A stretch of 33,263 nt of DNA from Firmicutes bacterium UBA4053 (GTDB lineage: Bacteria; Bacillota; Desulfotomaculia; Desulfotomaculales; Nap2-2B), in the NCBI GenBank assembly GCA_002382125.1, contig DFZP01000032.1, positions 1-33,263 of the forward strand, written 5' to 3'. The translations under genes and the position numbers were made by a program. Positions within the stretch are counted from its first letter, which is position 1. Each line of letters opens with the position of its first letter. Shown here piece after piece: positions 7,126 through 29,900 of this stretch. The notes under the pieces were generated by a model. That model was not told the origin of the DNA. It did no database searches and worked only from the letters and a program-made list of their open reading frames with translations.

Positions 7126-8850
7126 TCAGGCGTTTTCCAGAAGTTTTCTTTTGAGCAAAAATTCCAGGGCTGCAGGGAGTTGTTCAATTGATTCCATCAG
7201 GTAAAGTTTAGATCCGTATTGTTCCTGGAATTGTTCTTTTAATTCATCATTAAAGCCATATCCGATTGTGATCAGGTCTATATTTTGTTTCTGGCAGAAC
7301 TTCAGGGCCTCACCAACACTGACCCCGCAATTTGGTTCCCCGTCGGTGATGTGAATAATCAATCTTTTTTTATCTTTCGGCGTGCATAGGCCGGCGGCAA
7401 TTATTGCCTGCCCGGTAGGGGTCCGGCCGGCCGGTGAGGCGGTGTACAGTTTGTTGTGATGAAGTACCCGCATCACATAACAGCGCCCGCTTTGTTCCTG
7501 GTAGCAAAATACGTTGAGTTTATTTCCGAAACCTTTTGCTGCTTCGTATAGGGAGACATAAGTATTTTGCACCATCAGCCAGTCTCCCCCTTTGCCCCCT
7601 CCTTTTTTTAGGGCCATGGATTCTGAAGCGTCTACCAGGATGGTTATGTTCCAGAATTTGTTTTCAAAGGTGCGTTCCTTTTCTTTAAATACTTTCCCCT
7701 CTAATGGAGTTCTGTACAATTTCCTGCCGTCAATCTTGCCGTAATCAAGACCTCTGTTTACCCTTAAAGCGGTGGGATTAGCCTTCTGCTGGGCCAGAAA
7801 AATGAGCTTCAGTCTTTTGACCAGGTAAGGATCGGGCAGTGCCCTGCAGGGTTTGGTTTCATCCCAGAAACGGGTAGGAACAACCTGAAAACTTTCCTTC
7901 CCGGCGATTGCTTTTATTTGCCTGGTCAGGTCCCTTTCTTCATCTTCCTCTAAAACTTTGTTAATAGATGATTCTAAGTCAGCGGGTAGGGGTTTTACCT
8001 GCCGTTTGATTAATTTATCCCGTTCCTGCAGTTCTTCCTGATCTTCTTCGCATTCCTCACAACGGTTTTCATCGGCCGTAATAAGCTCTTCTATCTCGGG
8101 TAGTTCTGTCTTCCATTTTACGAGATAAATTGACAAAGCTTCCCACATTTCCTGGTATAGAAGCGCTCTGTAATTGCCTCTTTCCGACGATGAACCATTA
8201 TTCTTGGAATGTTTAATTTCATCAGTGCTTGATAATAAAAAGTTTAAGGGTTCAATGTAATCGGGATGGATAAAATGGTGAAGCTTATTTTCAAGTACTT
8301 GCTCCCCCCAGATTTGAAAGAGTGATACGAGGGTAGGGGGAGAAAGAGGATTAACATTTATCTTGCGGTTGAACCACTTCCATGCGTTGGAAATGTAACG
8401 GCGCCATACAATATTGTCTTCCGCTACGTAATTAATATAAATATCTTCCGCCACTTCGAAGAAATTATAAAGGGCAAAACGAGCTGCCAGACCCAGGCCC
8501 GTGATGTTTTTTTCTAAGATAGTCCAGACTAAGTCGCTTAGTTCTTTACAATGCAGGGCTTCATGAGCGACCCATCCTACCAGAACGTCCATTTTTCCCG
8601 GAGGAATAGGGTAGTCGCCTAAAACAAAACCGGGATCGAGTAAAATCTTTCCCTCGGTTAAATCGGACATTCCCGCCCATTCAATGGTCTTTAAATTTGA
8701 GGTAATATACCCCCCCACTTTTCTGAGCGCCTTAAGAGCATAAGCCATTTCTCTCGGTTCTATAGGTGATTTGTTTTTTCTCCAGTATTCCGAAAAACCG
8801 GCCTTAAAATCCTGTTCTTCGGCATCACGCAGGCTGGCCACAACCATCAC
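7126..8850 (-). CDS. von Willebrand factor A (MIDAS) domain protein with N-terminal HExxH region; NorD/CbbO/CobT-like partner of the adjacent AAA_5 ATPase
   Basis: Intact MIDAS signature: DASES (nt 7618-7632), TPTGQAI, HITDGEPN. N-terminal HEALH at nt 8551-8565. An acidic linker (ENRCEECEEDQEELQERD, EEDEERD) separates the halves. The exact start is uncertain (GTG 8850, ATG 8847 or GTG 8841). The ORF overlaps the ATPase ORF by up to 26 nt. Confidence 0.8.
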   Translation of the reverse strand: MMVVASLRDAEEQDFKAGFSEYWRKNKSPIEPREMAYALKALRKVGGYITSNLKTIEWAGMSDLTEGKILLDPGFVLGDYPIPPGKMDVLVGWVAHEALHCKELSDLVWTILEKNITGLGLAARFALYNFFEVAEDIYINYVAEDNIVWRRYISNAWKWFNRKINVNPLSPPTLVSLFQIWGEQVLENKLHHFIHPDYIEPLNFLLSSTDEIKHSKNNGSSSERGNYRALLYQEMWEALSIYLVKWKTELPEIEELITADENRCEECEEDQEELQERDKLIKRQVKPLPADLESSINKVLEEDEERDLTRQIKAIAGKESFQVVPTRFWDETKPCRALPDPYLVKRLKLIFLAQQKANPTALRVNRGLDYGKIDGRKLYRTPLEGKVFKEKERTFENKFWNITILVDASESMALKKGGGKGGDWLMVQNTYVSLYEAAKGFGNKLNVFCYQEQSGRCYVMRVLHHNKLYTASPAGRTPTGQAIIAAGLCTPKDKKRLIIHITDGEPNCGVSVGEALKFCQKQNIDLITIGYGFNDELKEQFQEQYGSKLYLMESIEQLPAALEFLLKRKLLENA

Positions 8851-16286: not shown

Positions 16287-16340
16287 AGATCAGAAGGGGT
16301 TATTGAATGCCATTGACAAATAACGGCAGGAGTGAACATA

Positions 16341-17438
16341 ATGCAGGAAAAGGCTTATTGGCTGGGCTGGCAAATTATTCTTCCCGGCATGGCCAAGCGC
16401 ATCTGGAACTTAATTGAACGTTTTGGTTCACCTGCCGCGGCCTGGAACGCAACGGCAGGTGAGTTGGTAAGAACAGGCGGATGTTCTGTAGAAACGGCAT
16501 CTGCCCTGGACAAACGAAAAGCCGGCCTGGATTTGCAGATAGAACTGGACCGTCTTGAAGAAGCCGGTATAACCTACATATTATATGAAGAATCTTCGTA
16601 TCCTGAATTACTGAAAACTATTTTTGACCCGCCGCCCGGTCTTTTTATACGAGGCTCCTTATTGCCTGCTGACAGTCTGGCAGTGGCCGTTGTGGGTTCC
16701 CGCCGCCCCACTCCTTACGGACTTGCTGTGGCCGAAAAGATGGCTGAGGAGATGGCCCGGGCCGGTATAATCGTGGTCAGCGGCATGGCTCGCGGTATTG
16801 ATAGCAGTGCCCACCGGGGAGCGCTTAAAGCGGGAGGATGTACCATTGCTGTCTTGGGCTGTGGTCTGGATGTGGTTTATCCCCGCGAAAACCGGCGCCT
16901 GAAGGAAGACATTTCCTCCTGCGGCGCCGTAATAAGTGAGTATCCGTTGGGTTCTTTGCCGGAAGCGTGGCATTTCCCTGTGAGAAACCGTATTATTAGC
17001 GGTCTTTCTAAGGCAACGGTAGTGGTGGAAGCAGGTGAACGCAGCGGGGCATTGATCACTGCCGATTGTGCATTGGAGCAGGGGCGGGATGTGCTGGCCG
17101 TACCGGGCAATATCAGCAGTCCATTGAGCAAAGGACCCAACCGCCTGATTAAACAAGGTGCGCGCCTGGTGGAGAAAACAGAAGACATTTTGGAAGAAAT
17201 AGGGGTGGGTTCCTTGTTCGGGGCGGAAAACGGTAAAACACCATCCCTTCCGCAGTTGACTGAAGAAGAAGAAGCTGTTTACCGCTTGCTCTCGCATGAG
17301 CCGGTAGATTTAGATAAATTGGTTGCCCTGGCAAACTTGCCGGTACAGGAAGTTCTGGCAGCCCTGATGTTTTTGGAGATAAAAGGTCTGGTACGGCAGT
17401 TGCCAGGCAGGCTTTATGTTTTGCGGGGCCTGGCTTGA
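16341..17438 (+). CDS. dprA: DNA-processing protein DprA
   Basis: Rossmann-like core VAVVGSRRPTPYG...VVSGMARGIDSSAHRGAL...GCTIAVLGCGLDVVYPREN...FPVRNRIISGLS...VVVEAGERSGALITA, plus a C-terminal winged-helix-like tail. ATG 16341 follows GGAGTG, while the ORF opens at GTG 16332. Confidence 0.92.
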   Translation: MQEKAYWLGWQIILPGMAKRIWNLIERFGSPAAAWNATAGELVRTGGCSVETASALDKRKAGLDLQIELDRLEEAGITYILYEESSYPELLKTIFDPPPGLFIRGSLLPADSLAVAVVGSRRPTPYGLAVAEKMAEEMARAGIIVVSGMARGIDSSAHRGALKAGGCTIAVLGCGLDVVYPRENRRLKEDISSCGAVISEYPLGSLPEAWHFPVRNRIISGLSKATVVVEAGERSGALITADCALEQGRDVLAVPGNISSPLSKGPNRLIKQGARLVEKTEDILEEIGVGSLFGAENGKTPSLPQLTEEEEAVYRLLSHEPVDLDKLVALANLPVQEVLAALMFLEIKGLVRQLPGRLYVLRGLA

Positions 17439-17452
17439 AATTATGCCTTGAC

Positions 17453-17499
17453 CCCTCCCCCTAACCCCCTCCCTCAAAGGGAGGGGGTTAGGGGGAGGG
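17453..17499 (+). terminator. perfect 21-bp G/C-rich hairpin (probable dprA terminator or structured element)
   Basis: CCCTCCCCCTAACCCCCTCCC (17453-17473), loop TCAAA, GGGAGGGGGTTAGGGGGAGGG (17479-17499). It begins 15 nt after the dprA stop. A TTTTT run follows about 10 nt downstream. Confidence 0.5.
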
Positions 17500-17605
17500 A
17501 GATTTGAACTTTTTCGACAGTTTCTTTTAAGATGGATTTTTCCGGTTAATATTAGCATATAAGAATTACAGGCGGCAGATACTTCAAAAAGAGGAGTGAA
17601 TGTTA

Positions 17606-22783: not shown

Positions 22784-23569
22784 ATGCGCAACTTATTAGA
22801 AAAAACACGTTCTTTAAACAAGCTGCTTCAAAAATCAGCCGGCTACCCCGTAGATTTTAAGGAAATAGCCGCCATCTTAGGAGATAACATTGGTTGCGGT
22901 GTCTACATAATTGATCGCCGGGGTAAAGCACTGGGATACGCTTACCTGAGGGGTTTTACGTGTGACATAATGTATAACTTTGTGGAATTTCCGGATGGAT
23001 TCCCGGAGGAATACAATGGAACCCTGCTCCGTATGGATGAAACGCACGCTAATTTCTGTCAGACGGAAAATATCTGCGTTTTTAACCAGGAGATACGTTG
23101 TAAATTTAACAATAAGGTAACCACCGTCGTGCCCATTGTGGGGGCCGGATCGAGACTGGGAACACTTGTGTTGGCCAGGTTCGACACACACTTCACGGAC
23201 GAAGATCTGATCCTGGCGGAGTACGGCTCTACAGTAATCGGTATGGAGATTCTGCGGGCGCGGGCAGGACGCATGGAAGAAGAAGCCCGCAAAAAGGCAG
23301 CCGTTCAGATTGCCGTTGGTACCCTGTCATATTCCGAGTTGGATGCGGTACAGCATATCTTTGAGGAACTGGCCGGTGAAGAAGGGTTGCTGGTAGCCAG
23401 TAAAATTGCCGACCGCGTTGGGATTACCAGATCGGTTATTGTAAACGCCCTGCGCAAGTTTGAAAGCGCAGGAGTAATCGAATCCAAGTCGTTGGGAATG
23501 AAAGGCACATATATAAGGGTGATCAACGACAGGCTGATGGAAGAATTGGAGAAGCTAAAGCATTATTAA
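22784..23569 (+). CDS. codY: GTP/BCAA-sensing pleiotropic transcriptional repressor CodY
   Basis: [13 protein letters not shown]..., GAF-like N-terminal domain, and C-terminal w[33 protein letters not shown]. Confidence 0.95.
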
Positions 23570-23584
23570 GTACAGAAAGCCACA

Positions 23585-23628
23585 AAACCACAGTTTCTCG
23601 AAGAAGAGACTGTGGTTTATTGGTTTTT
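23585..23628 (+). terminator. Rho-independent terminator after codY
   Basis: AAACCACAGT (23585-23594) pairs with ACTGTGGTTT (23609-23618), with further inner pairs. It is followed by ATTGGTTTTT. Confidence 0.6.
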
Positions 23629-23637
23629 AACAGAAGG

Positions 23638-23667
23638 TTGCTTATCCCGCCTGTTAAATGCTATAAT
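23638..23667 (+). promoter_or_regulatory. candidate sigma-A promoter of cysE-cysS
   Basis: TTGCTT (23638-23643), 18-nt spacer, TGcTATAAT (extended -10, -10 hexamer at 23662-23667). Confidence 0.55.
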
Positions 23668-23701
23668 AACTTATAATTTAACATTAAAGTTTTGTGTCTG
23701 A

Positions 23702-23742
23702 CCTGTCTGCGTGCCTGTCTACGTGCGACGCACAGGCAGGTA
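23702..23742 (-). repeat. palindromic repeat family, copy A (inverted orientation, with partial internal duplication), in the cysE leader
   Basis: The reverse complement reads TACCTGCCTGTGCGTCGCACGTAGACAGG+CACGCAGACAGG. The 22-nt core (23714-23735) differs from copies B-D at 2-3 positions. On the plus strand the hairpin is followed by TATTTTT. Confidence 0.8.
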
Positions 23743-23769
23743 TTTTTCGAGATAGGGAGAGTTTACCGC

Positions 23770-24429
23770 TTGTTTGGGCGTTTTAAAAAGGATATTCAAG
23801 CTGTTTTTGACCGTGACCCGGCAGCCAAAAGCCTCTTCGAAGTACTCCTTTGTTACCCCGGCCTGCACGCTGTTATTTTGCACAGGCTGGCTCATTTTTT
23901 TTACCGCTGCCGGCTTTTTATTGTGGCGCGCCTGATTTCCCATTTCTCCCGCTTTTTCACACAGATTGAAATCCATCCGGGGGCAAAAATTGGAGAAGGA
24001 TTTTTCATAGATCACGGCGCGGGTGTGGTAATAGGAGAAACAGCAGAAATAGGCAATAACGTTACCATTTATCAGGGAGTTACCCTCGGCGGCACCGGCA
24101 AGGAAAAAAGCAAACGCCATCCTACTATTGGGAATAATGTAGTGATCAGCACCGGCGCTAAAATCCTGGGTTCGTTTATCGTAGGGGATAATGCTAAAAT
24201 TGGGGCCGGTTCGGTGGTGTTGAACAGCGTGCCTCCTAACAGCACGGTAGTAGGAGTGCCCGGGAAAGTCGTTTCCCGTGACGGGCAAAAGACAGATGAA
24301 AAAGGATTGCCTCTGATCGATCTCCGGCACGATCAGCTTCCCGACCCAGTGGCGGAAATAATCAACGGCATGCTGCAGGAGATTGAAGGCTTGAAAAAAC
24401 GCGTGTTGGAACTGGAAGAAAGATCATAA
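23770..24429 (+). CDS. cysE: serine O-acetyltransferase
   Basis: [20 protein letters not shown]..., with hexapeptide repeats [41 protein letters not shown] 23770 follows GGGAGAG. The longer ORF from 23692 would translate the repeat element and looks non-native. Confidence 0.9.
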
Positions 24430-24460
24430 GTCTATTTTTCGAAGGAGAAGGTATCGTTCC

Positions 24461-25933
24461 ATGGAAATATACAACACTCTCACCAGGCAAAAAGAGAAAT
24501 TTATTCCCCGCCAGGCCGGGAAGGTGTCCATCTACGTTTGCGGCCCTACTGCCTATAATTACATTCACCTGGGGAATGCCCGCCCCCTGGTGTTTTTTGA
24601 TACCGTCCGCCGCTACTTCCAGCAGAAGGGTTACGAGGTAAGATATATCCAGAATTTTACCGATATCGACGATAAAATCATCAAACGTGCTTTAGAGGAA
24701 AAGGACGACCCCTTGCGCCTTGCTCAAAGGTATATTGACGAATACTTTAAGGACGCTGATGCTTTAAACGTAAAGAGGGCTGATCATCACCCCAGGGTTT
24801 CTGAGCACATGGAAGACATTATCAGACTGATTGAGATATTAATAGAGAAGGGATTTGCCTACGCGGTAGAGGGAGATGTTTATTTTGATGTTTCCTCTTT
24901 TCCTGAATACGGGAAGCTTTCTCACCGGTCTTCCGATGAAATGCTTGCCGGGGCAAGAGTAGAGGTGGACCCGCGAAAGAAGAATCCCATGGATTTTGCG
25001 CTCTGGAAATCTGCTAAGCAGGGGGAGCCTTTCTGGGAGAGCCCGTGGGGCCAGGGACGCCCGGGCTGGCATATGGAATGCTCGGCCATGTCCTTAAAGT
25101 ACTTGGGTCCTGGCTTTGACATCCACGGAGGGGGTATGGACCTGATCTTCCCCCACCATGAAAATGAAATTGCCCAATCGGAAGCGGCTACCGGTAAACC
25201 TTTTGCACGTTACTGGGTGCATAACGGTTTTATTACGGTAAACCAGGAAAAAATGTCAAAATCTCTGGGAAACTATTTCCTGATAAGGGAAATACTGAGC
25301 AAGTTCCCCCCCCTGGCAGTTCGCTTTTTTCTGCTTTCAACTCATTACCGCAGCCCGCTGGATTTCGATGACGAAAATGTGGCCGCGGCAACCCGGGGTC
25401 GGGAACGTCTTAAAAACAGCATAGAGCTTTTAAATGAAGCGCTGAATCATCACCGGCACGAAGAAATCCGGGAAGAAGACGAAAAATTCCTGGTCAGATT
25501 GGAAAGCTGCCGTTCCCGCTTTATGGAGGCCATGGATGACGATTTTAATACCGCCCTGGCGATTGGGGTTTTCTTCGAACTGGCCAGGGAAGTAAATATT
25601 CATTTACAGGAACATGGCAGGCATTATTACCCTGCCTGCCTGTGCGGTGCACGCAGACAGGTTTTAGAAAAGGCTATGGAAGCATATAAGTATTTCAACG
25701 CAGCGCTGGGATTGTTCAAGACGGATGCCGGGGGCAGGATGGTTTTCGACGATCAACCGGATGCTCAAGGAGATCTGGTTCATTCATTAATAGAGTTGCT
25801 TATCCAGGTGCGTGCCGAAGCGCGTTCCAAAAAAGACTGGGCAGCGGCAGACCGCATCAGGGATGGCTTAAAGGAACTGGGGATAATGATCGAGGATACA
25901 CCGCAGGGAGTGCGCTGGAAAAAGCTTTCGTAG
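24461..25933 (+). CDS. cysS: cysteine--tRNA ligase
   Basis: Class I motifs: HLGNA (HIGH-type) and KMSKS. Zinc/cysteine-binding residues are present (CGPT..., WHMEC...). The C-terminal anticodon-binding region is present. Confidence 0.97.
   Translation: MEIYNTLTRQKEKFIPRQAGKVSIYVCGPTAYNYIHLGNARPLVFFDTVRRYFQQKGYEVRYIQNFTDIDDKIIKRALEEKDDPLRLAQRYIDEYFKDADALNVKRADHHPRVSEHMEDIIRLIEILIEKGFAYAVEGDVYFDVSSFPEYGKLSHRSSDEMLAGARVEVDPRKKNPMDFALWKSAKQGEPFWESPWGQGRPGWHMECSAMSLKYLGPGFDIHGGGMDLIFPHHENEIAQSEAATGKPFARYWVHNGFITVNQEKMSKSLGNYFLIREILSKFPPLAVRFFLLSTHYRSPLDFDDENVAAATRGRERLKNSIELLNEALNHHRHEEIREEDEKFLVRLESCRSRFMEAMDDDFNTALAIGVFFELAREVNIHLQEHGRHYYPACLCGARRQVLEKAMEAYKYFNAALGLFKTDAGGRMVFDDQPDAQGDLVHSLIELLIQVRAEARSKKDWAAADRIRDGLKELGIMIEDTPQGVRWKKLS
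25628..25661 (+). repeat. palindromic repeat family, copy B, inside the cysS coding sequence
   Basis: TACCCTGCCTGCCTGTGCGGTGCACGCAGACAGG, translated in frame as YYPACLCGARRQ. Confidence 0.8.
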
Positions 25934-25945
25934 ACGATTGAGGCG

Positions 25946-26350
25946 GTGAAGAACTTTTTGTTTAAAGCGGACGTAAAAGCAGAAGAAGTTCCCATTCTTG
26001 TTCTGGCCTACATTGGGGATGCTGTCTATGAGCTGTTGATTCGCCAGTACCTGGTCGGCCGGGGTATTACCAGGCTCAATCAATTGCATGATAGGGCCAC
26101 CGGATATGTCAGGGCAGACAGCCAGGCGGCAGCCATGCGGGTCATCAAGGATAAGCTTAGTGAGGCGGAAGCGGCAGTGGCCCGGCGTGGCCGGAACGCC
26201 AAAAGTGGACACCCCCGGCGTGGAACGGAAGTTAATGATTATCGCTACAGTACGGGCATGGAAGCGCTCATAGGTTTTTTATACCTTAAAGGTGAATACA
26301 ACCGGCTAAAGGAAATCATGAACATGGTCCGGCAGGCTATAGAAGGATAA
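25946..26350 (+). CDS. mrnC: Mini-ribonuclease 3 (Mini-III, YazC)
   Basis: LAYIGDAVYELLIRQYL..., RGRNAKSG..., YRYSTGMEALIGFLYL. It holds the same position as Bacillus yazC, after cysS. Confidence 0.9.
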   Translation: MKNFLFKADVKAEEVPILVLAYIGDAVYELLIRQYLVGRGITRLNQLHDRATGYVRADSQAAAMRVIKDKLSEAEAAVARRGRNAKSGHPRRGTEVNDYRYSTGMEALIGFLYLKGEYNRLKEIMNMVRQAIEG

Positions 26351-26384
26351 AGGGTGCCGGACACGAAGCAGGTGGATTTTTGTA

Positions 26385-27158
26385 ATGAGTTTTAAAGAAC
26401 CACCGCAGGATGTTATTGCTGGCTGCAATCCAGTGCGGGAGGCGTTAAAGGCAAACCGGCCAGTAAACAAGCTGTTGGTGGCCAGAAGAATAGAAACAGG
26501 CGGCTGGCAGGAAATAAGGCGGCTGGTACAGGAAAAGCAGATACCTGTACAGCAGGTGGAAAGGGTTTACCTGGATAAGCTGTTTCCCGGTACGGTTCAC
26601 CAGGGAGTAGTAGCTTTAACTGCGTGCAAAGAGTACCTGTCAATAGATGAGGTATTGCTTGCAGCGGGCAAAGAACAACCCTTTCTTATCCTCCTGCATG
26701 AAATAACCGATCCGCATAACCTGGGCGCTATTATCCGTACCGCTGAAGCAACGGGCGTACATGGAGTGGTCATCACCTCACATCGTTCGGCGTCTCTTAC
26801 CCCGGCGGCAATGAAGGCCGCGGCAGGGGCGGCGGAATACGTGCCGGTATCCCGGGTAACAAACATGGCGCAGGCCATTCGATACCTTCAACAGCAAAAT
26901 ATATGGGTGGTCGGCGCTCACCCGGCGGCGAAAGATATCTTTTGGAACGCCAGGCTGGACGGCCCAATTGCCCTGGTTATTGGCAGCGAAGGAAAGGGTC
27001 TGGGTCCTCACATCCGGGACAACTGTGATCTTTTGGTGCGCCTGCCAATGGCGGGAAACTTAAATTCTCTTAATGCTTCAGTAGCGGCAGCCGTGCTTGC
27101 TTATGAAGTGTTCCGGCAAAGGAGAATGGCTGCTCATGGGAGAGTACCTGATTGTTGA
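26385..27158 (+). CDS. rlmB: 23S rRNA (guanosine-2'-O)-methyltransferase RlmB/YacO (SpoU/TrmH family)
   Basis: SpoU-type motifs: ITDPHNLGAIIRTAEATG, ALVIGSEGKGL, SLNASVAAAVLAYE. Confidence 0.9.
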   Translation: MSFKEPPQDVIAGCNPVREALKANRPVNKLLVARRIETGGWQEIRRLVQEKQIPVQQVERVYLDKLFPGTVHQGVVALTACKEYLSIDEVLLAAGKEQPFLILLHEITDPHNLGAIIRTAEATGVHGVVITSHRSASLTPAAMKAAAGAAEYVPVSRVTNMAQAIRYLQQQNIWVVGAHPAAKDIFWNARLDGPIALVIGSEGKGLGPHIRDNCDLLVRLPMAGNLNSLNASVAAAVLAYEVFRQRRMAAHGRVPDC

Positions 27159-27675
27159 TGGATATAACGTTATTTTTGCCTGGCCAGAGCTTGAAGAATT
27201 GAAAAAAACCAGCATGGAAAATGCCCGGCTTAAACTCATTGATATTTTGATCAGCCATGCGGCATTAACCGGATTCCGGATAATCGTGGTTTTTGACGCC
27301 CACAGGGTAAAGGATGTTCAGCAGCGGGTGGAAAATGAACATGGACTAAAAGTGATCTATACGGCAGAAGGAGAAACGGCCGATACCCTGATTGAAAGGC
27401 TGGCGGGAGAGTTTTCCAGACGTTCTACCTGTGCGTTGCACGCAGACAGGGATACCGTTTATGTTGCCACTTCTGATTGGGCGGAGCAACGAATGATCTT
27501 CGGCCAGGGAGCCTATCGCATTACTCCAAAAGAGTTGTTACGATGGGTGGAACGGGTGGAAAGGGAGCCAAAGTATCATTATATAGGCGGAACGGCTGCC
27601 GACGATTACCTGGAAAACCGCTTGAAGGAAAATATACGTGCTGTTTTAGAAAAATGGCGGCGCAAAAAAAGCTAA
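27136..27675 (+). CDS. yacP: NYN/PIN-like ribonuclease YacP (Rae1 family)
   Basis: YLIVDGYNVIFAWPEL..., VVFDAH..., VYVATSDWAEQ. ATG 27136 follows GGAG (27121-27124) and overlaps the rlmB 3' end by 23 nt. Confidence 0.88.
   Translation: MGEYLIVDGYNVIFAWPELEELKKTSMENARLKLIDILISHAALTGFRIIVVFDAHRVKDVQQRVENEHGLKVIYTAEGETADTLIERLAGEFSRRSTCALHADRDTVYVATSDWAEQRMIFGQGAYRITPKELLRWVERVEREPKYHYIGGTAADDYLENRLKENIRAVLEKWRRKKS
27426..27450 (+). repeat. palindromic repeat family, copy C (shortest form), inside the yacP coding sequence
   Basis: TACCTGTGCGTTGCACGCAGACAGG, translated as STCALHADR. This is a different reading frame of the element than in cysS. Confidence 0.8.
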
Positions 27676-27689
27676 AATGTTATTTTTTC

Positions 27690-27718
27690 TTGACGCGATT
27701 TTTACCCTAAGTTATAAT
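27690..27718 (+). promoter_or_regulatory. candidate sigma-A promoter of sigH
   Basis: TTGACG (27690-27695), 17-nt spacer, TATAAT (27713-27718). Confidence 0.6.
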
Positions 27719-27789
27719 AGTCGAGGATACAACAAAACACAGCAGTTATTAACTGACTAAAAGATTAGATTTTTGGTTGGGGAGCTTGA

Positions 27790-28455
27790 TTGATAAAGCG
27801 GGGGGATACAGTGATTTCATACGCCCAGAGAGATATTGCTACCTCTTACCAGTTAATGATCGATGAAGAAGTAGTTGGATTTGCCAGGGAGGGTGATGAT
27901 AGCGCTTTAGAATACCTGATCAATAAATATAAAAATTTCGTTCGGGCCAAAGCTCGTTCCTATTTTTTGATTGGAGCCGACCGGGAAGACATCATCCAGG
28001 AAGGCATGATTGGGCTTTATAAGGCTATTCGCGACTTTCGGCTGGACAAGTTGTCATCTTTCCGTGCTTTTGCCGAATTATGCATTACGCGGCAGATCAT
28101 TACAGCCATCAAGACAGCCACACGGCAAAAACATATTCCTCTCAACTCATATATTTCCCTGAATAAGCCTGTATATGAGGAAGATTCCGACCGTACTCTT
28201 TTAGATATTATTTCCTGTGCCAAAGTGGCCGATCCGGAAGAAATGATTATTAACAGGGAAGAATATTTTGATATTGAAGAAAAAATGTGTGAAATCTTGA
28301 GCTCTTTAGAATGGAAGGTGCTCATGTCTTACCTGGAAGGCAAGTCCTACCAGGAAATTGCCGAAGACTTAAAACGCCACGTTAAATCCATTGACAATGC
28401 GCTGCAGAGGGTAAAACGCAAGCTGGAGAGGTACCTGGAAAAGCGTGAGGTATAA
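27790..28455 (+). CDS. sigH: RNA polymerase sigma factor SigH (early sporulation / transition state)
   Basis: Near-identical blocks to Bacillus SigH as I recall it: FVRAKARSYFLIGADREDIIQEGMIGLYKAIRDF, FAELCITRQIITAIKTATRQKHIPLNSY, HVKSIDNALQRVKRKLE. Start is TTG 27790 (RBS GGGGAG) or GTG 27811. Confidence 0.95.
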   Translation: MIKRGDTVISYAQRDIATSYQLMIDEEVVGFAREGDDSALEYLINKYKNFVRAKARSYFLIGADREDIIQEGMIGLYKAIRDFRLDKLSSFRAFAELCITRQIITAIKTATRQKHIPLNSYISLNKPVYEEDSDRTLLDIISCAKVADPEEMIINREEYFDIEEKMCEILSSLEWKVLMSYLEGKSYQEIAEDLKRHVKSIDNALQRVKRKLERYLEKREV

Positions 28456-28516
28456 TTGACAGAAAAAAGATCTGTAATGTCACCGGTTGGTAGAGCAAAT
28501 CCTTTTTTCTTTTCTA

Positions 28517-28549
28517 TACCTGCCTGCCTGTGCGTTGCATGCAGACAGG
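28517..28549 (+). repeat. palindromic repeat family, copy D, intergenic (sigH - crp/fnr)
   Basis: TACCTGCCTGCCTGTGCGTTGCATGCAGACAGG. Confidence 0.8.
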
Positions 28550-28640
28550 GCTATGATCATCCGAAGGAGATAACTGGGGTGAGGCTTTAAACTTCAGCTT
28601 AAAAAATTACATACAGGTGTGGGTCAGTGGCGTTTAATGC

Positions 28641-28670
28641 TTGAACATATATTCATAATATTTTTATAAT
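28641..28670 (+). promoter_or_regulatory. candidate sigma-A promoter of the Crp/Fnr-family gene
   Basis: TTGAAC (28641-28646), 18-nt spacer, TATAAT (28665-28670). Confidence 0.4.
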
Positions 28671-28724
28671 TGCAGGATAAGTAAATTGTACAACGGAAGC
28701 AAACTATCTGGAAGGAGGGTAATT

Positions 28725-29396
28725 ATGAGGCTGACAACCTATTCCGAGAGGCGGCTTAATGAGAACATACTTTCCCGGCCCGCCAGAATGACGTACAAAG
28801 CCAATACAATATTTTATAACAGAGGCGAGCAGGCATGGAAGGCTTATTATTTAGAGAAAGGCCTGGTAAAGTTATCATTGATCAGCAGGGATGGAAACCA
28901 GAGATCGCCGGTATATATTACTGCCGGCAGTATGTTTGGAGAATATGGCCTGGTAAGCAACTCTTACGGAGCAACGGCCATTGCGGTTGTGGATTGTGAG
29001 GTTGTGCCCTTCAACAAAGAGCAGTTTGCAAGATTGATAAGTGAAGATTTTATCTTTGTCCAACTTTGCATTAGTTCCCTGGTGGAAAAACTCCAGGGGG
29101 TGGTAGAACAGTATAATGCAGCAAGCTTTATGGATCGGTTCGGCAAGGTGGCCAACGGATTATCCTGCCTGGCCCGGCGGTGGGGGGAGTCTGTTTTACT
29201 AACCGGTACAGATGGTGATGTTACCGAATGCTTGAGGCTCAGGATAACTCACCAGGAATTGGCCGAGTTTTCGGGGGTTACCCGTACAACTGTCACCACT
29301 GTGTTGAGTGCCCTCGAAGCCAAGAAAATAATCCAAAAACGGGCTAAAGAAATAATCGTACTGAATTTAAAAGAGTTGGAGCGTTGGGTAATGTAA
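28725..29396 (+). CDS. Crp/Fnr-family transcriptional regulator (no N-terminal Fnr-type Cys cluster)
   Basis: cNMP-binding-like beta-roll (GSMFGEYGLV...) and C-terminal HTH ITHQELAEFSGVTRTTVTTVLSALEAKKII. ATG 28725 follows GGAGGG, while the ORF opens at TTG 28686. Confidence 0.85.
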   Translation: MRLTTYSERRLNENILSRPARMTYKANTIFYNRGEQAWKAYYLEKGLVKLSLISRDGNQRSPVYITAGSMFGEYGLVSNSYGATAIAVVDCEVVPFNKEQFARLISEDFIFVQLCISSLVEKLQGVVEQYNAASFMDRFGKVANGLSCLARRWGESVLLTGTDGDVTECLRLRITHQELAEFSGVTRTTVTTVLSALEAKKIIQKRAKEIIVLNLKELERWVM

Positions 29397-29900
29397 AAAT
29401 GTAGTCAAAAAAACATTTTCTTTGTTCCCTGGAAGACAGACAATTAAGAATATTTAAGGGATAATACCTAAAAGTAATAATTTATAATCTTAAGAAAGAT
29501 CATGTTGGGGGGTGGGCAATTTTTATTAGTTGTGCTGTTTTTTATATTGGCGGTAGTTTGCTGTCTCGCCCTCTTTCCCAGGAAAAACTGGCGCGGCTTT
29601 TTCCTGAGTCTTCTATCGGCAGGAAAGCAGAAAAGATCACCATGACAAGATAACCGGAGCACGCTGGACGGCACTTGAACGACAAGGAAGGAGTAGTTTC
29701 GCCACGCAGTTTCAAAGAATGGTAGGGTTTTATTCGGGGAGAGGTTTATCCTGGTACAAGCTTCTTTAGCTCTGCCGGAGCTTTGCGGGGTGAACACTCA
29801 GACTTATCGCCCAGAGGCTCCAACAGAGAGTAGAAAGGCTGCTATTATAGGTTGTTCTTCAGGAGGATGGTTAGTAAGTCTTAGAAACGAGGTGGTTTAA

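Follow-up and report, generated by a model that had tools for sequence, protein, structure and literature searches.

We consider it rather probable that four short repeats in the 33.3 kb window (the whole stretch of DNA analysed) represent a non-autonomous insertion element of 27 nt, REP-like or SDR-like, which we call E1 and which would be moved in trans as a folded single strand, presumably by machinery of the HUH/Y1 type. The small mobile palindrome, REP-like or RPE-like, of the original prediction is upheld by exact 27-nt insertions relative to orthologues, by the lack of any copy in a syntenic relative, and by dispersal of the sequence among unrelated flanks.

The window was rescanned by Hamming matching with a tolerance of 6 mismatches, and again with either half-element on its own. 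The four core copies reported at 23714-23735 (minus strand), 25640-25661, 27429-27450 and 28528-28549 (all plus strand) were recovered at these positions; both scans of the whole window bore out the statement that it holds no further copy, and dinucleotide-preserving shuffles gave 0 matches, as expected of repeats said to be beyond chance. All four copies lie inside 4.85 kb (P ~0.011 under uniform placement), at spacings of 1921, 1789 and 1099 nt. These are not the regular spacers of about 25-75 nt of a CRISPR array, a candidate that had rightly been set aside for the irregular spacing and two copies inside genes; one copy is also inverted. As full 27-nt units, copy A (CCTGCCTGTGCGTCGCACGTAGACAGG; 23714-23740, minus strand) occupies the gap separating the codY terminator from cysE, with the cysE start (23770, as taken from the gene calls) 30 nt downstream of it; copy B (CCTGCCTGTGCGGTGCACGCAGACAGG; 25635-25661, plus strand) is within cysS; copy C (TCTACCTGTGCGTTGCACGCAGACAGG; 27424-27450, plus strand) is within the yacP (NYN) gene and shows a 5' tail variant, TCTAC, that recurs in L026 and L098; and copy D (CCTGCCTGTGCGTTGCATGCAGACAGG; 28523-28549, plus strand) follows the sigH stop codon by 68 nt. 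The partial duplicate noticed beside copy A proved to be a right-arm piece at 23702-23714, the sole extra fragment in the window, of which 23702-23713 (CACGCAGACAGG, minus strand) abut the copy; this piece arose by tandem duplication of the 3' arm or else is what is left of a nested copy. Comparable arm repeats were seen in L107 and L009.

The repeat unit had been given as the 22-nt core, which is too short: across aligned copies, the information content begins 5 nt upstream of that core and is at background beyond 27 nt, so that the edges of E1 are sharp. Its consensus is CCTGCCTGTGCG-NN-GCACGCAGACAGG, with loop positions 13-14 free to vary while the stems are retained. Copies are uniform, 87 of 132 among the matches listed being perfect across the 25 specified positions. 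The 5' tag reads CYTG, with C1, T3 and G4 invariant and C, T or A at position 2 in the 47 distinct variants; it is neither GTAG nor CGTC, and GTAG/CTAC and CGTC/GACG are absent from the consensus, a 5' CTAC occurring only in rare variants. The region upstream had been described as TAC followed by a variable number of CTGC units. Its 5' part is indeed variable; the units are better counted as CCTG, with one in copy C, two in copy A and three in copies B and D (the third at 25631-25634 and 28519-28522, respectively), and in copy B one additional C separates TAC from the first CTGC. The upstream TAC is confined to this window, being absent in 160 other E1 copies. E1 measures 3 x 9 nt and contains zero stop codons in all six frames. 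This freedom is not significant, as it is also found in 26% of shuffles and in 12% of the 27-mers of the window, and stop-codon freedom as a selected property was rejected on these unexceptional frequencies.

The fold originally proposed (5 bp, a 2-nt bulge, 4 bp and a 3-nt loop) coincides with the minimum-free-energy fold as DNA, at -5 to -7 kcal/mol, and agrees with covariation between sister families. Overall, E1 consists of the C-Y-T-G tag, unpaired in this fold, 5 bp, a conserved 2-nt A-R bulge on the 3' arm (A21-R22), 3-4 bp and a free loop, with 93.9% of stem cells paired over the 47 distinct variants. In E2, a sister family of equal length and shape, the stem carries a compensatory change: pair 9-23 is T-A, C-G or A-T by type, and is never unpaired. 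The covariation check across copies, which the original prediction had suggested, backs the hairpin, since the observed score was reached by 0 of 500 shuffles and collapses in slid controls; few independent events underlie it. To judge from this covariation and its few events, the hairpin structure may well be needed for spread. A slipped hairpin register using the first CCTG was also considered; the pair counts are against it, and none of the E2 rows keeps C6-G22 intact.

E1 adds exactly 27 nt, and no host bases are lost. Copy B adds 9 residues (ACLCGARRQ) to CysS inside its DALR domain; these residues are missing from the 59 CysS homologues compared, and the DALR_2 match extends over 68 residues versus the 57 positions of the profile. 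In yacP, the alignment with the orthologue of the syntenic relative, L120, shows a gap of exactly 27 nt at copy C, which is read in a different frame from copy B. Once the 27 nt are removed, CysS and YacP both return to orthologue length. Both copies sit harmlessly in two housekeeping genes; with a stop-free unit of 3 x 9 nt, a copy that enters a tolerant loop of a protein can persist as a 9-residue insertion. The syntenic relative (~70% nucleotide identity) contains zero E1 copies across 13.4 kb, so that comparison at orthologous loci, another check that had been suggested, finds all the copies missing there. It had also been stated that mobility would be argued against if only these copies existed and were ancestral in all relatives; the opposite was found. 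An empty site was read directly off the sequence of L122, where the hairpin GCGGGCG-TCT-CGCCCGC is uninterrupted, while in L100 and L123 the same hairpin has 27 nt in its loop.

The insertion sites share features. E1 prefers Y-R^Y flanks at its junction, and its flank pairs are more mutually complementary than control pairs (Mann-Whitney p = 9e-6). Many copies are located at the apex of host palindromes or inside the loop of another copy, with E1 nested in E1 in L107, L018, L058, L077 and L093. Lineage-specific composites were also seen to transport E1 together with their own flanks.

Beyond the window, E1 was found in at least 119 genome stretches, from MAGs of more than 20 phyla, with flanks that are all different, and in viral DNA (about 25 contigs, 30 stretches); the INPHARED collection of cultured phages contained no copy. 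One E1-bearing contig, L063, is binned as Methanosarcinales, which may reflect a binning error. Nearly all matches in the genome collection are MAGs, long-read MAG chromosomes included (OZ241917.1, OZ244937.1, OZ245363.1 and CBDCML01), and one copy is borne by the finished plasmid pSTJ1 of a cultured isolate, Sulfuricystis multivorans J5B, where it occupies the loop of a 14-bp host inverted repeat. Outside the window, E1 lies in either orientation relative to genes, and 39 of 131 copies fall in long open frames, versus 77% of random positions.

No mobilising enzyme could be assigned to E1 in the stretches searched. The original prediction had advised looking for RAYT or IS200-like transposases; profile searches did retrieve RAYT-like ORFs in 3 of 149 E1 stretches (1.09 Mb) and 2 of 121 E2 stretches (0.57 Mb) among the matches listed, and no clear link emerged, the window itself encoding no Y1 protein. 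Two of the three ORFs in E1 stretches touch a copy (L100 and L123). The association is at most a weak enrichment, as five ORFs are too few to link RAYT to the element. The locus of the closest RAYT homologue, L122, contains no E1 copy over 20.8 kb, the peptide of the element is present in only 1 of 120 RAYT homologues (the orthologue of L100), and no Y1 transposase is annotated in the first 50 kb of pSTJ1. All-against-all ORF clustering of the 119 genome stretches listed yielded no recurring neighbour gene family, and neither a reverse transcriptase nor a template gene recurring near copies. We would place the enzyme elsewhere: E1 would be recognised as a folded single strand, then cut and joined in trans by a protein encoded at another locus, most likely an HUH/Y1 nuclease (RAYT or IS200-type), a class that works on single-stranded DNA without generating a duplication. 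Either this machinery, or E1 itself carried on plasmids and phages, may cross phyla and keep the sequence near-uniform.

The strongest competitor, which we judge improbable, is templated insertion, with the 27 nt copied from a conserved master, either an RNA via reverse transcriptase or a DNA in break repair, and pasted into nicks or loops. It would account for the extreme uniformity of copies across phyla, for the missing target duplication and for the lack of a transposase adjoining the copies; however, the ORF clustering gave it neither a recurrent reverse transcriptase nor a template gene, a variable loop at positions 13-14 between kept stems would be predicted if existing copies are recognised, not if one master is copied, and the lineage-specific composites bring E1 along with their own flanks.

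Target duplications distinguish a second possibility, that E1 is a DDE-transposase MITE shrunk to its two terminal inverted repeats. No consistent duplication was found in 125 copies at 16 x 12 boundary offsets and lengths of 2 to 6 nt, no combination occurring beyond a few. HUH chemistry is not expected to produce one. The label MITE-like, proposed earlier, is consequently unfit, as E1 has no target-site duplication and is far too small. In favour of this origin, the two arms are inverted copies of each other over about 10-12 nt, and IS elements are known to enter REP loops (IS1397, cited in PMC3116915). Against it, the bulge is asymmetric and, like the unpaired 5' tag, conserved, and 27 nt is far under the size of known MITEs, which makes it very unlikely.

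Less likely again is a functional cis-element of the cysE-cysS-yacP-sigH block, a hairpin bound by a regulator or an RNase and kept by selection. The clustering of the four copies in one block, where copy A falls in the leader region of cysE and copy D closely follows sigH, would suit it. A dispersed protein- or RNA-binding site linked to the cysE-sigH block was one of the original suggestions. This proposal is contradicted by the same operon of the syntenic relative, which lacks the copies, by two copies being coding insertions in different frames and one copy being inverted, by the use of either orientation elsewhere, and by the identical sequence in unrelated contexts of more than 20 phyla. 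A permissive-threshold Rfam search of 23000-29500 gave only STnc240, a chance match. An intrinsic terminator was rejected as well, since no copy is overlapped by any of eight terminator-like sites or has a T-run on its 3' side. The copies need not serve the cysE-sigH genes in any way.

The near-restriction of matches in the genome collection to MAGs could hint at an assembly, adapter or chimera artefact, for which the chance is negligible: copies are in frame in essential genes, long-read chromosomes and a finished isolate plasmid carry E1, and flanks differ at every copy. Eight further metagenome contigs of the same Peptococcaceae-like organism, from at least 6 samples and 99.74-100% identical, have the same copies wherever the sites are covered, copy A being unchanged in six other assemblies and copy D in eight, which excludes an artefact and means that the copies are fixed in the species. 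No presence/absence polymorphism was observed among these near-identical assemblies, which we count against the mobile-element reading, as it gives no sign of current activity in this organism. The organism has four copies that are old enough for fixation, yet they are missing from its nearest available relative.

E1 may be compared with several known systems. REPs are dispersed, non-coding and occasionally intragenic imperfect palindromes of 20-50 nt, with an unpaired conserved 5' tetranucleotide and a bulge (PMC8266576, PMC3733652), and for group-2 REPs TnpAREP requires the conserved 5' motif and the bulged palindrome, which it processes as single-stranded DNA (PMC8266576). E1, a 27-nt palindromic hairpin with an unpaired 5' tetranucleotide and a stem bulge, falls within this description, and its build agrees with what TnpAREP requires in group-2 REPs. 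It differs in its CYTG tag, as opposed to the GTAG or CGTC of the two described REP superfamilies; in that no REPIN- or BIME-type doublets were found, the host having four copies in 33 kb, two of them intragenic, and no doublets, nor any cognate RAYT flanked by copies; in its preference for loops and nesting in itself; and in its range, one and the same sequence being present in more than 20 phyla when a REP family is confined to a species or genus. Elements of the IS200/IS605 group (IS608, ISDra2) and PATEs are folded hairpins in single-stranded DNA that use a short target motif, make no duplication and need a single-stranded target. The latter need would explain the loop preference of E1. 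They have two distinct subterminal hairpins and at least 100 nt, unlike E1, which is one 27-nt hairpin with no TnpA linked.

The SDR1-8 repeats of the Nostocaceae, reportedly described by Elhai et al. in 2008, are said to be hairpins of 21-27 nt with compensatory changes and nested insertions into themselves and into other repeats. To our knowledge no enzyme mobilising SDRs has been named, and E1 is alike in this. With its 27 nt, compensatory pair 9-23 and nested copies, E1 is likened to SDRs by their description, not by SDR sequences. SDRs are reported only in one cyanobacterial lineage (PMC5861425), and PMC2884548 mentions them as well. E1, in contrast, spans phyla and viral contigs. Lineage specificity is the usual assumption for REP- and SDR-type repeats alike. 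RPEs, of about 100-150 bp and confined to Rickettsia and relatives, land in frame in protein-coding genes, where the extra peptide is tolerated. E1 resembles them in this in-frame insertion only, being 27 nt long and devoid of the CGTC tag that RPEs carry (PMC3733652).

The same 27-nt sequence in very distant phyla offers an unusually clean system for studying how tiny repeats move, with clear filled and empty sites, a readable Y-R^Y loop rule, compensatory sister families and a copy in a cultured strain (J5B, pSTJ1). E1 is also a practical matter in annotation: housekeeping proteins acquire 9-residue insertions from it, ORF calls acquire spurious Cys/Arg-rich peptides, and it could pass for a regulatory motif. 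More tentatively, and with less confidence than in the insertion element itself, E1, E2 and E3 might form a superfamily not described before, made up of bulged hairpins that are CYTG-tagged and exactly 27 nt long. This superfamily could be the smallest horizontally spreading mobile DNA known, active in more than 20 phyla and in phage, entering single-stranded hairpin loops, its own included, giving 9-codon stop-free insertions and driven by a putative broad-host-range single-strand nuclease/ligase. A literature search with the E1 and E2 sequence strings matched only unrelated primers. At least 29 of 120 E2 copies are located in the loop region of E1/E3-type copies.

The four copies in the window belong to a phylum-spanning superfamily of 27-nt hairpins targeting hairpin loops, a family background more interesting than could be seen from the original prediction. 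A pattern search of the window for the repeat, a 27-nt unit termed E1 (CCTGCCTGTGCG-NN-GCACGCAGACAGG), recovered the same four copies, A to D, and none in dinucleotide-preserving shuffles. Hamming scans (6 mismatches at most for the whole unit, 1 for each half) detected no further copy in the 33 kb, as previously stated, the sole extra piece being an additional right arm adjoining copy A. Copy A is inverted and lies 30 nt upstream of cysE (23770-24429), which follows codY (22784-23569); copy B is within cysS (24461-25933), upstream of the mini-RNase III gene (25946-26350) and rlmB (26385-27158); copy C is within yacP (27136-27675), in a reading frame other than that of copy B; and copy D lies 68 nt past sigH (27790-28455), ahead of a Crp/Fnr regulator gene (28686-29396). 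Such clustering is somewhat unusual, since four copies inside 4.85 kb of 33.3 kb correspond to P ~0.011 under uniform placement. A third CCTG unit precedes copies B (25631-25634) and D (28519-28522), a feature of only 5 of 166 copies overall, which suggests either CCTG-repeat slippage or a local source copy common to both.

Eight further metagenome contigs of the same organism, recovered from at least six different samples (metagenomes of oil-sands tailings and of hydrocarbon enrichments among them), match the window at 99.74-100% identity. In all eight, the copies are present base for base at every site covered, with no presence/absence variation among them; they are hence genuine insertions rather than an artefact, and are fixed in the species-level population. 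The organism is Peptococcaceae/Desulfotomaculia-like, its CysS sharing 69% identity with the Desulfofundulus protein, and the window sequence is found again in metagenomes from oil-sands tailings and from methanogenic enrichments degrading hydrocarbons (JGI 3300002446, 3300002220, 3300035454; ENA ERZ922797).

A profile of 126 copies from the window and other genomes showed conservation across all 27 nt of E1, information outside the unit being at background except for a weak Y-R on the 5' side and Y on the 3' side. A length of exactly 27 nt was supported by three of three filled/empty comparisons: (i) CysS of the window carries 9 additional residues in its DALR domain relative to 59 homologues, (ii) the alignment of yacP with its syntenic orthologue (locus L120, GCA_020725585.1; ~70% nucleotide identity) contains a single clean 27-nt gap, and (iii) a hairpin that is empty (GCGGGCG-TCT-CGCCCGC) upstream of a RAYT-like gene at locus L122 has 27 nt inserted between its 5' arm and loop in stretches L100 and L123. 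Together with unrelated flanks across phyla, these sites bear out the main reading of the original prediction, a REP-like small mobile palindrome. Its suggestion of a binding site specific to the cysE-sigH block is wrong, as L120, whose genes from codY to sigH are arranged in the same way, lacks any copy over 13.4 kb.

A scan of species-representative genomes found E1 in at least 119 stretches. By record title, the matches listed include Thermodesulfobacteriota, Kiritimatiellota, Verrucomicrobiota, Planctomycetota, Nitrospirota, Nitrospinota, Methylomirabilota, Latescibacterota, Acidobacteriota, Chloroflexota, Bacillota, Actinomycetota, Spirochaetota, several Pseudomonadota classes, Patescibacteria, Elusimicrobiota, Bacteroidota, Ignavibacteriae, Armatimonadota and others, as well as one contig binned to Methanosarcinales. 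Among these listed matches, the flanks differ at every copy, several MAGs contribute 4-6 stretches apiece, and three are long-read chromosomes. E1 also occurs in 30 stretches from ~25 viral contigs, with none in cultured-phage records, and a perfect copy resides on plasmid pSTJ1 of the cultured Sulfuricystis multivorans J5B. In a sample chosen on an exact 18-base core, copies were strikingly uniform, 87 of 132 being perfect over the 25 specified positions and 31 having one change. A sister family, E2 (CTTGCCTGCGCG-NN-GCGCGCAAGCAGG), also of 27 nt, was first noticed nested in E1, in L123 and likewise in L066, and is abundant (at least 120 stretches in a metagenome scan, L165-L284); rarer types are E3 (CCTGCCTGTGCC-GG-CATGGCAGACAGG) and an AGCG...AGT type. 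Literature searches with the E1 and E2 sequences found no published description of the superfamily.

In the minimum-free-energy DNA fold of E1, CCTG is unpaired, positions 5-9 pair with 23-27 and 10-13 with 17-20, and an A21-R22 bulge and a 3-nt loop remain. The hairpin originally predicted held up under covariation: 93.9% of pairs were formed over 47 distinct 27-mers (pair 9-23 being T-A in 31, C-G in 13, A-T in 2, T-G in 1 and unpaired in none), the score and the number of double changes were reached by 0 of 500 shuffles, and slid pairing partners, used as a control, gave only 20-49% pairing. A slipped register using the first CCTG was unsupported and rejected. Because the 47 rows group into few families, the covariation comprises a handful of independent compensatory events, yet it is consistent and specific.

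No target-site duplication was found at any boundary or length tested. E1 and E2 have a flank signature in common (-2, Y in 73-76%; -1, R in 80-87%; base after the element, Y in 83-87%), which is a target preference since these bases are the host's in the L122 empty site. Flank-flank pairing at or below -20 kcal/mol was seen in 15% within a copy versus 3.6% between loci (Mann-Whitney p = 9e-6), contiguous-stem counts concurring, and copies clearly sit at the apex of host palindromes in L069, L059, L068, L100 and pSTJ1. The pSTJ1 copy occupies the loop of a perfect 14-bp inverted repeat spanning the start codon of an HTH-domain gene (62143-62263; L154 5940-6060), whose translation initiation it may alter. 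E1 is nested in E1 in L107 (three deep), L018, L058, L077 and L093, the host copy being split in or beside its loop, while E2 lies inside E1/E3-type copies in at least 29 of 120 cases (24 reverse versus 5 forward), a very large enrichment given that such hosts make up very little of any genome. Long open frames hold about 30% of copies, versus 77% of random positions, and copies in them favour neither strand (17 same, 22 opposite); E1 is stop-free in all frames, but so are 26% of its shuffles, and this is therefore a permissive property and no evidence of selection.

In some genomes E1 sits at the tip of longer repeats that are specific to a lineage. Five copies of an ~85-nt composite palindrome, ATCTAAGTTGAGCGATTTTGTAAGGCAGG-[E1]-TCTGAATATAGAATCGCTCAATTTAGGT, were read (L056, L074, L091, L113; CALGPO01 MAG), one of which splits a RAYT-like ORF (L074, about 7540-7620), and the L001 flanks resemble those of this composite. 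In Thermodesulfobacteriota and Dissulfurispiraceae MAGs (L003, L005, L014, L115, L117), E1 lies within another recurrent palindrome, GTCATTCC(C/G)GC...GC(G/C)GGAATGAC, apparently a dispersed hairpin family in its own right.

The data point to recognition of E1 through a folded single strand, since its stems covary and its loop is free, its tag and bulge are conserved, its insertion is exact and duplication-free, and its loop targets are single-stranded. Folded single strands are the substrate of HUH/Y1 enzymes such as those of the IS200/IS605 and RAYT type, which work without creating a duplication. For E. coli TnpAREP, both a conserved motif on the 5' side and a palindrome with a bulge are needed, and cleavage falls on either side of the hairpin (PMC8266576). 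As this chemistry and these requirements match the features of E1, we favour a mechanism in which E1 would be mobilised in trans by such an enzyme; insertion by a templated route, involving reverse transcriptase or repair, is a less likely alternative. RAYT-like ORFs (PF01797, NF047646) were present in only 5 of 270 element-bearing stretches and touched a copy in two of the five, at most a weak enrichment. The locus of the nearest RAYT homologue (L122) has no copy, and ORF clustering revealed no other recurring neighbour family. In L100 (3560-4400), L123 (9480-10950) and L122 (7386-10819), a RAYT-like Y1 transposase ORF lies within or directly after a DUF1156 / N6_N4 DNA methylase gene, with the hairpin GCGGGCG-TCY-CGCCCGC on its 5' side; homologues of this type are labelled 'putative DNA methylase' by some sources.

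Among known families, REPs are closest to E1 in anatomy, but E1 differs in its tag, in having neither doublets nor a demonstrated REPtron and, chiefly, in its identical sequence across phyla. In a wide-ranging survey of REPs, the superfamilies described are GTAG and CGTC alone, and neither Firmicutes nor the E1 sequence is mentioned (PMC3733652). In behaviour, by description, the small dispersed repeats (SDRs) of cyanobacteria are closest. The 2008 study of Nostocaceae by Elhai et al. reportedly found repeats of E1-like size with a shared hairpin and self-nesting. SDRs are reported from Nostocaceae only (PMC5861425). RPEs have in-frame tolerance as their sole feature in common with E1. CRISPR, terminator and DDE-type MITE readings each failed their defining test and were rejected.

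The window also contains a perfect 22-bp hairpin, CCCCTCCCCCTAACCCCCTCCCT-caa-AGGGAGGGGGTTAGGGGGAGGG (17452-17500), between an ORF (16332-17438) and topA. Its GGAGGGGGTTAGGGGGAG arm recurs next to an E1 copy of a Deferribacteres MAG (L048, 2108-2125), and the hairpin may be a second hairpin repeat common to several phyla.
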